The notes under the pieces were generated by a model. That model did no database searches. It had not been told where the DNA came from and saw nothing but the letters and a program-made list of their open reading frames with translations. Source: Halorhodospira halophila SL1 (GTDB lineage: Bacteria; Pseudomonadota; Gammaproteobacteria; Nitrococcales; Halorhodospiraceae). Taken from it: a DNA stretch of 32,000 nucleotides. Shown here in pieces: positions 19,928 to 20,842 of the stretch (positions are counted from its first letter, which is position 1; every line of letters begins with the position of its first letter). The stretch is from the NCBI RefSeq assembly GCF_000015585.1, contig NC_008789.1:1230001-1262000 (forward strand). Reading direction: 5' to 3'. The position numbers and the translations under genes were made by a program.

Positions 19928-20713
19928 CTACAGGTCCGGAATACTTTCATATGCATCCCGGAGTTCATCGCCTTCCGGCCGATTTTCCGCTACTCCTGTC
20001 TTAATCGATTCGATATGGGGCTGTAGTTTTTCCCGGAGCCAACGGTACTTAACAGCAACCGAGGGATCCCTTACTGCGAGACCCGACTCTACGATTTGTT
20101 GCAGGCAGTACAGGTACTTGGGGTAATCAAGTTCCGGATCGTCAAGCTCGGATTGAGCACCGGTTACATAGTTTATGTAGTACATTCCGTCGGAGTCCTT
20201 TTCGAGCAGACTCATGATGCTTTGCACCTCATGCTCGGGAAGATGGTGTCTTGCGTGCGCCCTGGCTCCCAAGTTTATGATGGACTCATCTAATATCACC
20301 CTGGGGTATAGGGCGGCCTTGGATTCGAGTACATAGGCATCAACCATTCCAGGACCGAACAAAACTTTTGGGGTATGAATGAGCTTCCCTTGTGCCACCG
20401 CTCCCCGGCAAAGGATACCCCTAAGCACGAGATTTACCTGCACCCACATAATATTGAGCAGAGCATAGAACACGCCGCTTTCTTCGGTTGCTCGAAAAGA
20501 TATGACCACGGAGTCTGAGAACTGAGTGACCTCCTCCCCTTCCCGGTCTTGCTGGCGATCGATATCGAGGATATCCCTTATGCCTTCAAAAGCCGCGATC
20601 AGGTGATCGGTACGATCCTTTTCCTCGGTACCATCAGGATCGATCGTTCCTGCCACATGGCCCCGAAATCCCAAAATGTCAAGAAAGCAGACAACTCTAT
20701 CTTCGTAGTTCAT
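19928..20713 (-). CDS. Divergent class III nucleotidyl-cyclase / GGDEF-like palm-domain protein with a C-terminal helical extension (function unknown)
   Basis: The motifs appear in cyclase-homology order: VVCFLDILGFRG (first metal Asp), QFSDSVVISF (second Asp), LRGILCRGAVAQGKLIH, then LFGPGMVDAYVLESKAALYPRVILDES. The local GC is visibly lower than in the flanks. I prefer the ATG at 20713 (MNYEDR). The ORF track extends to 20791. Confidence 0.6.
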   Translation of the reverse strand: MNYEDRVVCFLDILGFRGHVAGTIDPDGTEEKDRTDHLIAAFEGIRDILDIDRQQDREGEEVTQFSDSVVISFRATEESGVFYALLNIMWVQVNLVLRGILCRGAVAQGKLIHTPKVLFGPGMVDAYVLESKAALYPRVILDESIINLGARAHARHHLPEHEVQSIMSLLEKDSDGMYYINYVTGAQSELDDPELDYPKYLYCLQQIVESGLAVRDPSVAVKYRWLREKLQPHIESIKTGVAENRPEGDELRDAYESIPDL

Positions 20714-20842
20714 TCTGAATCTGCCAAACTTTAAATAGACGGCCAAACCGCCGCGTAACATCCCAACCCAGCCCACGGACCGCGGCAACATCGCCAGTAA
20801 ACCAAGGCCTTGCGCTCGACGTCCAAGACCTTTCGATGCGCG

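Follow-up and report, generated by a model that had tools for sequence, protein, structure and literature searches.

The best-described relative of the gene reported here is a phage toxin. PanT(Bur. phage) belongs to a type II toxin-antitoxin (TA) system in which the DUF4065 protein PanA is the antitoxin, and the validated pair is exactly gp9-gp8 of the Burkholderia prophage phi52237, gp8 being the toxin (Kurata et al. 2022, PNAS, PMC8832971). HHpred matched it at 97% to adenylate/guanylate cyclase, and it was described as 'a putative nucleotide cyclase toxin'. Toxicity was demonstrated in E. coli, and PanA both neutralises the toxin and comes down with it in pull-down experiments (PMC8832971). 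Transcription is inhibited most, translation less and replication least; guanosine tetraphosphate (ppGpp) accumulates in a RelA-dependent manner, ATP is unchanged and GTP is slightly lower (PMC8832971). We found no later literature on PanT(Bur. phage) and, apart from the Panacea paper itself (PMC8832971), no described stand-alone cyclase defence in the literature. Two other palm-fold enzymes are relevant. PycC of the Pycsar system is a cyclase-fold enzyme with two catalytic Asps that is found in defence islands (PMC11224242), and mCpol is a palm protein of minimal size that stands alone in loci of defence genes (PMC12657230).

Here we analyse a gene for a 261-residue protein in a 32,000-nucleotide (nt) stretch of Halorhodospira halophila SL1 (contig NC_008789.1, positions 1,230,001 to 1,262,000; hereafter the window, numbered from its first letter). 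A first-pass annotation, made from the letters and a list of open reading frames (ORFs), had read the gene as an orphan, divergent cyclase-like palm protein in a defence island and suggested a novel single-gene or two-gene module that signals with nucleotides or depletes them. We are highly confident that the protein has a class III cyclase-type palm fold and belongs to the PanT family. The toxin family itself is already known; what is new is that all of the 80 relatives examined lack an antitoxin or partner.

Relationship to the PanT toxin of phi52237

The window protein matches two phage protein families in PHROG, phrog_23933 at E 6e-38 and phrog_21097 at E 3e-11, both without an assigned function. 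A tblastn search of 50,697 phage genomes with the window protein gave no match, and more distant family members used as queries matched P2-like Burkholderia prophages. The homologue in prophage phi52237 is gp8 (YP_293707.1), which begins 2 nt downstream of gp9, a SocA_Panacea/DUF4065 protein (PF13274, E 8e-18). The gp8 gene has the integrase on one side and, on the other, a second TA pair adjoining the portal gene Q. We take this integrase-to-Q stretch to correspond to the cargo hotspot of P2-like phages (Rousset et al. 2022).

Three comparisons connect the window protein with gp8. BLASTP aligned the two over 197 residues with 29% identity (E 2e-15). The profile of 128 family representatives, aligned to gp8 with hhalign, scored 99.8% (E 1e-29) over 229 columns that include the C-terminal helices, and hmmsearch gave 82-128 bits, with a best E-value of 3e-32 at -Z 1.8 billion sequences. 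The family match covers nearly the full length of the protein. The two proteins have the motifs YE.RVV.F.DILGF, FSD, RGG, FGPAxVDAY.xES, PRVIL and DG..YI in common, and both are encoded on mobile DNA amid other defence or TA genes. Judged by its sequence, the window gene is a member of the family of PanT(Bur. phage), so that the suggested novelty of the module has to be given up: it has a precedent in an experimentally validated toxin (PMC8832971).

The two proteins also differ. They are just 29% identical, and gp8 is phrog_21097-like in PHROG whereas the window protein belongs to phrog_23933. The annotated gp8 carries an N-terminal extension of ~45 residues that is not a feature of the window protein. 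Most importantly, gp8 is encoded 2 nt after its Panacea antitoxin, whereas the window gene and its 80 closer relatives lack PanA or any conserved partner. Because an adjacent Panacea antitoxin is absent, we file the window gene as an antitoxin-less variant of the known toxin family, as far as can be told from the sequences, and not as a PanAT system.

The kinship with PanT bears on the suggestion that the enzyme depletes nucleotides, using up ATP or GTP and so halting the cell. A solo enzyme with a nucleoside triphosphate (NTP)-binding palm site could work in this way, as do other defence enzymes and the toxSAS toxins (FaRel, discussed in PMC8832971). However, the validated family member leaves ATP unchanged and GTP slightly lower while transcription collapses (PMC8832971). 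For this reason depletion is disfavoured, and we give it very little chance.

Predicted fold and active site

An AlphaFold2 model of the window protein, built with 42 homologues, reached a pLDDT of 94.8 and a pTM of 0.92. Its secondary structure (E, strand; H, helix) runs E4-13, H16-21, H32-48, E60-65, E68-74, H80-96, E102-113, H121-133 and onward, and ends with three C-terminal helices (193-212, 217-244 and 250-256). In a Foldseek search of the PDB, all 48 matches at E <= 0.001 were class III adenylate/guanylate cyclase domains (probability 1.0), among them Ma1120, CyaC, sAC, sGC, Rv1900c and AC2-C2. About 190 columns aligned to these 160-residue domains, with a TM-score of ~0.65 normalised to the target. 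The palm or cyclase fold that the first-pass annotation had asked a structural model to look for was thus found. In contrast to the structural search, searches of sequence libraries returned little. Pfam (E <= 1), NCBIfam and PADLOC scans of the window protein gave no match, searches of PDB sequences with the single sequence and with the profile gave noise only. The sole match in a viral structure library was a giant-virus cyclase at E 2e-3.

The four cyclase-like blocks proposed at the outset are all present in the given order: FLDILGF at residues 10-16, FSDSVVI at 65-71, RGILCRGAVAQGKL at 98-111 and FGPGMVDAYVLES...YPRVILDES at 119-144, with the two Asps, D12 and D67, 55 residues apart. Their conservation was assessed in the 128 family representatives, which are 28-49% identical to the window protein. 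Eleven residues are invariant in all of them (Y3, D12, S66, D67, R103, G104, G120, A126, P137, R138 and K222). Other positions reach a conservation of 90% or more: R6, F10, L14, G15, F16, F65, S72, G109, H113, P121, E130, A134, D173, D175, Y182 and W225. Since the key residues are invariant in 128 divergent representatives, the motif blocks are not due to chance.

How the protein relates to genuine class III cyclases (PF00211) was less clear from profiles than from the model. PF00211 was the only recurrent Pfam family among the members, but only 9 of the 128 matched it individually (best E 8.6e-6), and the window protein has no significant match to its profile. An hhalign comparison with 30 genuine PF00211 cyclases gave a probability of 2.5%, and a comparison with a typed cyclase consensus was statistically weak as well; the local alignments were still used for residue mapping, the latter to place the Asps and the Lys position. 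In these alignments D12 falls on the first metal Asp (F.D..GFT; FADIVGFT in the consensus) and D67 on the second (IGDA). The substrate-specifying Lys position corresponds to T63/Q64. The positions of the transition-state Asn and Arg correspond to V124 and V128 in the local profile alignment, both variable in the family, which bears out the early remark that these two residues were replaced in the segment MVDAYVLE. The alignments show a predicted active site in which the two-metal Asp pair and the phosphate-site Arg/Gly (R103-G104) are kept and the canonical Lys/Asn/Arg set is lost.

The protein resembles class III cyclases (Ma1120, CyaC, Rv1900c, sAC and sGC) in its palm fold and its order of strands and helices. 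The metal Asps lie at the end of β1 and in the β2-β3 hairpin, a Gly-Phe loop follows the first Asp, an Arg opens β4, and an ...A..LES helix is followed by a P-x-I/V-L strand. Beyond the exchange of Lys for T63/Q64 and of Asn and Arg for variable hydrophobic residues, several features set it apart. The segment from the β4 Arg to the LES helix is ~8 residues shorter than in the cyclase consensus. In cyclases this segment holds the β4-β5 dimerisation arm. The spacing between the Asps is longer, at 55 residues against typically ~44 in cyclases, for example D102/D146 in EaPycC (PMC11224242). The protein also adds a three-helix C-terminus with invariant residues of its own. Outside the cyclase core this tail amounts to only ~70 residues, fewer than the ~120 first estimated; it carries the invariant K222 and the near-invariant W225 and may serve in regulation or oligomerisation. 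Because the profile test failed and the Lys/Asn/Arg set is absent, the name adenylate or guanylate cyclase is unsuitable. Fold and invariance do support the initial view of a divergent class III cyclase-like palm with its metal Asps.

A metagenomic protein of 475 residues, P0121, joins two family domains in a natural tandem fusion and is the single example of its kind. The first copy lacks D67, R103 and E130 and retains T63, Q64 and Y127. The second copy retains both Asps and the Arg and carries Q64H and Y127H. This complementary decay, as in the C1/C2 pseudo-heterodimeric cyclases, hints that the family may form a dimer with shared sites. The AlphaFold2 model of P0121 has a pTM of 0.56 and its arrangement is unreliable; compared with the tandem cyclases sAC and AC9 it gave a TM-score of ~0.28 and a root-mean-square deviation of ~18 Å.

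The gene and its stand-alone organisation

The gene lies within an intact minus-strand ORF at 19928-20791 that contains a second in-frame ATG at 20713. The ORF proposed earlier, with a product of 261-287 residues, is thus real, but its longer start at 20791 is not favoured. Homologue N-termini read MNYEDR... and align to ATG 20713, and DNA similarity to the nearest relative begins at -6; we therefore place the start at this ATG. The 261-residue product is 100% identical to H. halophila ABM61925.1/WP_011813948.1, labelled hypothetical at NCBI and, by an automatic name, 'Guanylate cyclase domain-containing protein' in UniProt.

Composition sets the gene apart from its surroundings. Its GC content is 50.6%, with 54% at third codon positions (GC3), compared with 64-67% and a GC3 of 79-91% in the neighbours and a GC content of 70% in the core genome. 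The lower GC content noted at first sight is therefore real, and the gene is AT-rich foreign cargo acquired horizontally. Among its closest relatives the ratio of nonsynonymous to synonymous substitution rates is 0.16-0.24, as expected under purifying selection, so these genes are not decaying remnants.

Neighbouring genes were compared in 80 genome loci from many phyla; PanA was searched for in 100 loci and the window, and the genes at positions ±1 and ±2 were scanned in ~75 loci. Neighbour clustering, Pfam and PADLOC revealed no conserved neighbour in the 80 loci beyond closely related genomes. The ±1 genes contained 119 Pfam families among 118 proteins, led by protein kinases (4), GmrSD (2) and Abi_C (2). 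The ±2 genes were led by restriction-enzyme domains (ResIII 4, SWI2_SNF2 3, HSDR_N 2 and N6_Mtase 2), together with housekeeping singletons. A jackhmmer search seeded with phi52237 PanA found no PanA homologue in the window or in the 100 loci, and clustering of small ORFs found no conserved flanking ORF of 40-160 residues across loci. In the window itself, the upstream gene and a 64-residue ORF have no Pfam match; the latter (20731-20925) is probably spurious. No gene for a cyclic nucleotide monophosphate (cNMP)-binding, TIR, transmembrane (TM), CARF or SAVED protein adjoins the gene in the window, nor does one occur among the recurrent families at the homologue loci. The orphan status claimed at the outset thus extends to the homologues.

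These data argue against a signal synthase of the Pycsar, Panoptes or CBASS (antiphage signalling by cyclic oligonucleotides) type with an effector in trans, or an oligonucleotide synthase like GGDEF proteins or mCpol. Such a role is suggested by the palm fold common to PycC, GGDEF and Cas10, by the defence-island setting and by the presence of Cas10 (Cmr2) chains among the weaker structural matches of P0121 (rank 40 or lower). Like PycC, the window protein combines a cyclase fold and two Asps with a defence island, but its specificity residues differ, and no cNMP-binding effector fused to TIR or TM segments adjoins it. With mCpol/Panoptes, the Cas10 palm and GGDEF proteins it has a related palm and acidic residues at the same two positions in common. 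However, its hairpin reads QFSDS and not GGDEF, GG[DE]EF or GGDD, its top 50 structural matches in the PDB are all cyclase homology domains with no GGDEF among them, and no gene for a Panoptes-type effector with two TM segments lies near it. The fold is a cyclase-type palm and not the Pol-β type of CBASS, with neither a PADLOC match nor an effector neighbour. PycC and other PADLOC models matched none of the 128 members, no candidate effector of the kinds listed above was seen in the window or the 80 loci, and known signalling systems hold synthase and effector in one operon (PMC11224242). We regard a signal synthase as very unlikely, and the first-pass annotation was right that the gene does not fit Pycsar, CBASS or type III CRISPR.

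A two-gene module with the adjacent 392-residue, nuclease-like gene (20925-22103) was the other arrangement suggested earlier. The genes are co-directional and 211 nt apart, and the 392-residue protein has a weak match to PDC-S11, a candidate for a defence protein. Nevertheless, no homologue of the neighbour stands beside any of the 80 relatives. The nearest relative of the window protein, from Wenzhouxiangella (83% identity; locus L001), adjoins an ABC-3C/PDC-M68B gene instead, the GC3 of the two window genes is 54% and 79%, and DNA homology ends 6 nt upstream of the ATG. These neighbourhood data remove the two-gene idea, which we consider effectively refuted.

The extent of the transferred unit follows from the comparison with Wenzhouxiangella. 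As blastn homology covers the ORF only, from -6 to +57, this unit is the gene with a 58-nt 3' flank. The flank is ~90% identical between the two species, compared with 84% for the coding region; it is partly recognisable in one further relative (L004) and absent from relatives at <=68% identity. It contains the heptamer GCCCAAC and an imperfect hairpin that is not conserved in L004. Two identities were considered for it and rejected. As an integron attC site it offers an inverse-core-like heptamer, GCCCAAC, yet no matching GTTRRRY core; as a structured RNA it fails on a fold that is not significant (z -0.53 against shuffled controls) and a hairpin not kept in L004. Upstream, the intergenic region contains a 14-nt inverted-repeat pair (20746-20759/20842-20855) and a weaker 27-nt pair, and no sigma-70-like promoter was matched between 20714 and 20924. 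The structured intergenic DNA described earlier did not exceed shuffled controls on either side of the gene (z -1.37 upstream and -0.53 downstream).

Another explanation is that the protein is an orphan toxin held by an unrecognised antitoxin. This could be PanA or another protein whose gene lies elsewhere in the genome, a small upstream protein peculiar to the lineage, or an RNA, for instance one involving the 58-nt 3' flank. The system would then be a dispersed or type I/III-like TA system and not a self-regulated enzyme. The characterised member PanT needs PanA, unrelated small co-directional ORFs lie upstream at many loci (DUF2442, DUF5677 and uncharacterised proteins of 98-135 residues), a Ruegeria plasmid homologue lies 13 nt after AbiEii, and two relatives differ less in the 3' flank than in the coding sequence. 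But no small ORF family recurs across loci, PanA is in none of the loci, the fold of the 3' flank is not significant, the flank is missing at <=68% identity, and the upstream region is wholly unconserved. We consider an antitoxin of this kind unlikely.

Family size, distribution and genomic contexts

A profile search found 10,821 clusters at 50% identity with E <= 0.001, of which 6,822 had E <= 1e-10. Among the best 150 clusters listed, almost all proteins are ~260 residues long with a single matched stretch. The family spans Proteobacteria, Bacteroidota, Chlorobiota, Nitrospirota, Bacillota plasmids and P2-like prophages, and this PanT-type cyclase-fold family has no Pfam, NCBIfam or PADLOC model. 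Homologues were found on 81 plasmids as well as in the P2-like prophages. The GC content of the gene is below that of its flanks in 65 of 67 loci, with a median difference of -7.6 points compared with an average of +1.5 for control ORFs taken from these loci (Mann-Whitney p 6e-25). A Citrobacter homologue had no DNA match in 5,426 complete E. coli genomes.

Of 12 independent annotated contexts, 8 have genes of defence, TA systems or mobile elements within ~5 kb. One is the window, with its tRNA-Phe, integrase, PDC-S28 and type I restriction-modification (R-M) genes with Abi_2 and GIY-YIG. The others contain Thoeris and HEPN (L086); AbiEii, HNH and Fic (L087); an integrative conjugative element with Mrr and Fic (L090); DUF1156/DUF499 and SIR2 (L091); GmrSD, IS21 and a kinase (L092); a prophage-like element with AbiJ, a kinase and integrases (L096); and HepT/MNT (L098). 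The remaining four, without defence genes, lie beside FBPase/recJ (L084), near ybeY/pdxJ (L089), in a polysaccharide (glycosyltransferase) cluster (L093) and after bioBFHCD (L097). The expected enrichment of homologues in defence islands is thus only partial: such genes accompany two thirds of these contexts and are lacking in the housekeeping and polysaccharide loci. An association of the family with defence or mobile elements, often but not always, is suggestive, with no statistic attached.

These contexts also bear on the possibility of a non-toxic second-messenger cyclase, a regulatory cargo that acts through host cNMP receptors with no role in conflict. The class III fold, the two metal Asps, the automatic UniProt name and the housekeeping setting of some members are in keeping with it. 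However, neither the canonical substrate Lys nor the transition-state Asn/Arg pair is present, and the protein has none of the sensor or regulatory domains that signalling cyclases typically carry; the relative that was validated acts as a toxin; and the foreign composition is systematic and the distribution patchy and mobile. This makes a second-messenger role distinctly unlikely.

Several side observations concern individual contexts. In Agrobacterium pAtLMG292b (L083, 3806-4795) a distant family member lies just after repABC, and in Ruegeria pTHAF33_c (L100) the homologue is found 13 nt after an AbiEi/AbiEii pair, with repC ~3 kb away. In these two and a third alphaproteobacterial repABC plasmid (Rhizobium gallicum, L099) the member is near the replication module, with integrases, DUF1403 and ScpB. 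Ser/Thr kinase genes (PADLOC PD-T4-6, mad6 and Stk2-like) adjoin the family gene in several unrelated loci (L092:12024-12839, L096:8826-9638 and position -1 of L045-L048 and L056). In L092 and L096 the kinase of ~270 residues is followed by an uncharacterised protein of ~390-430 residues. The kinases may represent an independent kinase-based defence module that uses the same hotspots. In two unrelated metagenomic loci (L097:3426-7905 and L089:16618-20834) the family gene is beside or near the biotin operon bioB/F/H/C/D, which may be a coincidence or an insertion hotspot.

The genomic island in the window

The gene resides in a mosaic genomic island (Table 1), in which the three landmarks first named as its context were all found: the ISL3 zinc-ribbon remnant, a nuclease-like gene and the type I R-M cluster. 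The 3' end of tRNA-Phe is not repeated within the window, so the right end of the island lies beyond position 32000 or has been lost. The PDC-S28 gene, with a GC content of 46.6% in a 70% GC genome, is a separate, recently acquired defence candidate of the single-gene system type. Within the R-M operon, hsdS and the Abi_2 gene have a GC content of 55-58%, compared with 65-67% for hsdR and hsdM.

Table 1. Positions of the gene, its parts and flanks, and the surrounding island in the window
Feature	Position	Strand	Evidence or remark
Coding sequence, 261-residue cyclase-fold protein	19928..20713	-	ORF; stop codon 19928-19930; ABM61925.1 match; homologue alignments
Class III cyclase-like palm core, residues 1 to ~185	20159..20713	-	secondary-structure order, Foldseek columns, residue mapping, invariance
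D12 codon	20678-20680	-	
S66-D67 codons	20513-20518	-	
R103 codon	20405-20407	-	
C-terminal three-helix extension, family-specific, residues ~186-261	19931..20158	-	model, conservation, phi52237 gp8 alignment
3' flank, 58 nt	19870..19927	-	blastn and alignment to L001:8787-8843; end of transferred unit
Upstream intergenic region	20714..20924	-	not conserved with relatives; inverted repeats
392-residue protein, neighbour not partner	20925..22103	-	PADLOC PDC-S11 E 2e-6; NucS E 0.015
Mosaic genomic island	12463..30954	.	tRNA-Phe through type I R-M cluster
tRNA-Phe	12463-12538		island left end
Tyrosine integrase with Arm-DNA-binding domain	12707-14053		directly after tRNA-Phe
859-residue DEAD/ResIII helicase, C-terminal nuclease-like region, PDC-S28	16569-19148	-	PADLOC 1025 bits, almost end to end
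ISL3-family transposase remnant, zinc-ribbon domain only	19262..19816	+	PF14690 E 5e-13
Type I R-M cluster	22134-30954	-	hsdR 22134-25313, hsdS 26434-27723, hsdM 28837-30954
GIY-YIG/DUF4357 gene	25433-26437	-	between hsdR and hsdS
Abi_2 (AbiD/F-like) gene	27720-28676	-	between hsdS and hsdM

A repeat array occupies positions 31282-32000, up to the end of the window. It consists of at least 8 copies of a motif of ~30-45 nt (GATACCCCCCTTGTATGAGCCGGGTGG...) spaced 87-90 nt apart, and it yields a spurious ORF of 209 residues with repeated RLIQGGYR. The array has no Rfam match. It is unlike CRISPR because the stretches between the copies also partly repeat.

Discussion

We propose that the window gene is a stand-alone, horizontally acquired growth-arrest module of the PanT family that is restrained by means other than PanA. 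For this combined reading we judge the chances to be about even. Of its parts, a toxin-like activity, which is argued from the analogy with PanT, is slightly favoured, and a role in phage defence specifically is a more tentative suggestion that we would put somewhat below even chances.

In the proposed mechanism, the protein would bind an NTP with two divalent metals and carry out a nucleotidyl transfer, which is unlikely to be the ordinary synthesis of cAMP or cGMP. The active protein would then arrest growth in the manner of PanT, with transcription affected first and translation next and with no depletion of ATP, probably because the nucleotide that it makes is toxic or because it modifies part of the transcription or translation apparatus. 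It could hence arrest growth as a module complete in itself, in abortive infection or in mobile-element conflict. Since PanA is absent, control would have to be intrinsic, at the level of expression or by an unrecognised factor. Most likely the protein is restrained either by itself, through its oligomeric state or its C-terminal helices, or by expression that stays low in the absence of a trigger.

Several points weigh against this proposal. Toxicity is known from one relative, PanT, which has 29% identity to the window protein and was studied by overexpression in E. coli. A constitutive toxin without an antitoxin should be intolerable to its host, so either regulation exists that is not seen in the loci or the solo proteins are non-toxic. 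The canonical head-to-tail geometry of a cyclase dimer is not reproduced by the P0121 model (pTM 0.56). No PADLOC model matches the window protein (E <= 1) or the 128 relatives (E <= 0.1), and 4 of the 12 contexts are housekeeping or polysaccharide loci.

A bolder version would make the solo proteins complete single-protein abortive-infection systems, triggered by phage and otherwise silent through their oligomeric state or C-terminal helices. In response to a phage they would make a non-canonical nucleotide product or nucleotidylate a macromolecule, and transcription would shut down as a result, with neither an antitoxin nor a receptor involved. We know of no cyclase-fold defence enzyme for which such a mode has been described, and we consider it possible but rather doubtful.

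The growth-arrest reading of the window gene raises questions that reach beyond this locus. The family comprises ~6,800 clusters (50% identity, E <= 1e-10) with one studied member, which is a potent toxin. The solo arrangement is the usual one among the 80 relatives examined, often inside defence islands. How can a host tolerate an enzyme of a toxin family when no antitoxin accompanies it, and which reaction is carried out by a cyclase fold that is stripped of the cyclase residues? Depending on the answer, there would be one more single-gene class of defence system or toxin, with a new nucleotide product, or the 'nucleotide cyclase toxin' label would be overturned.

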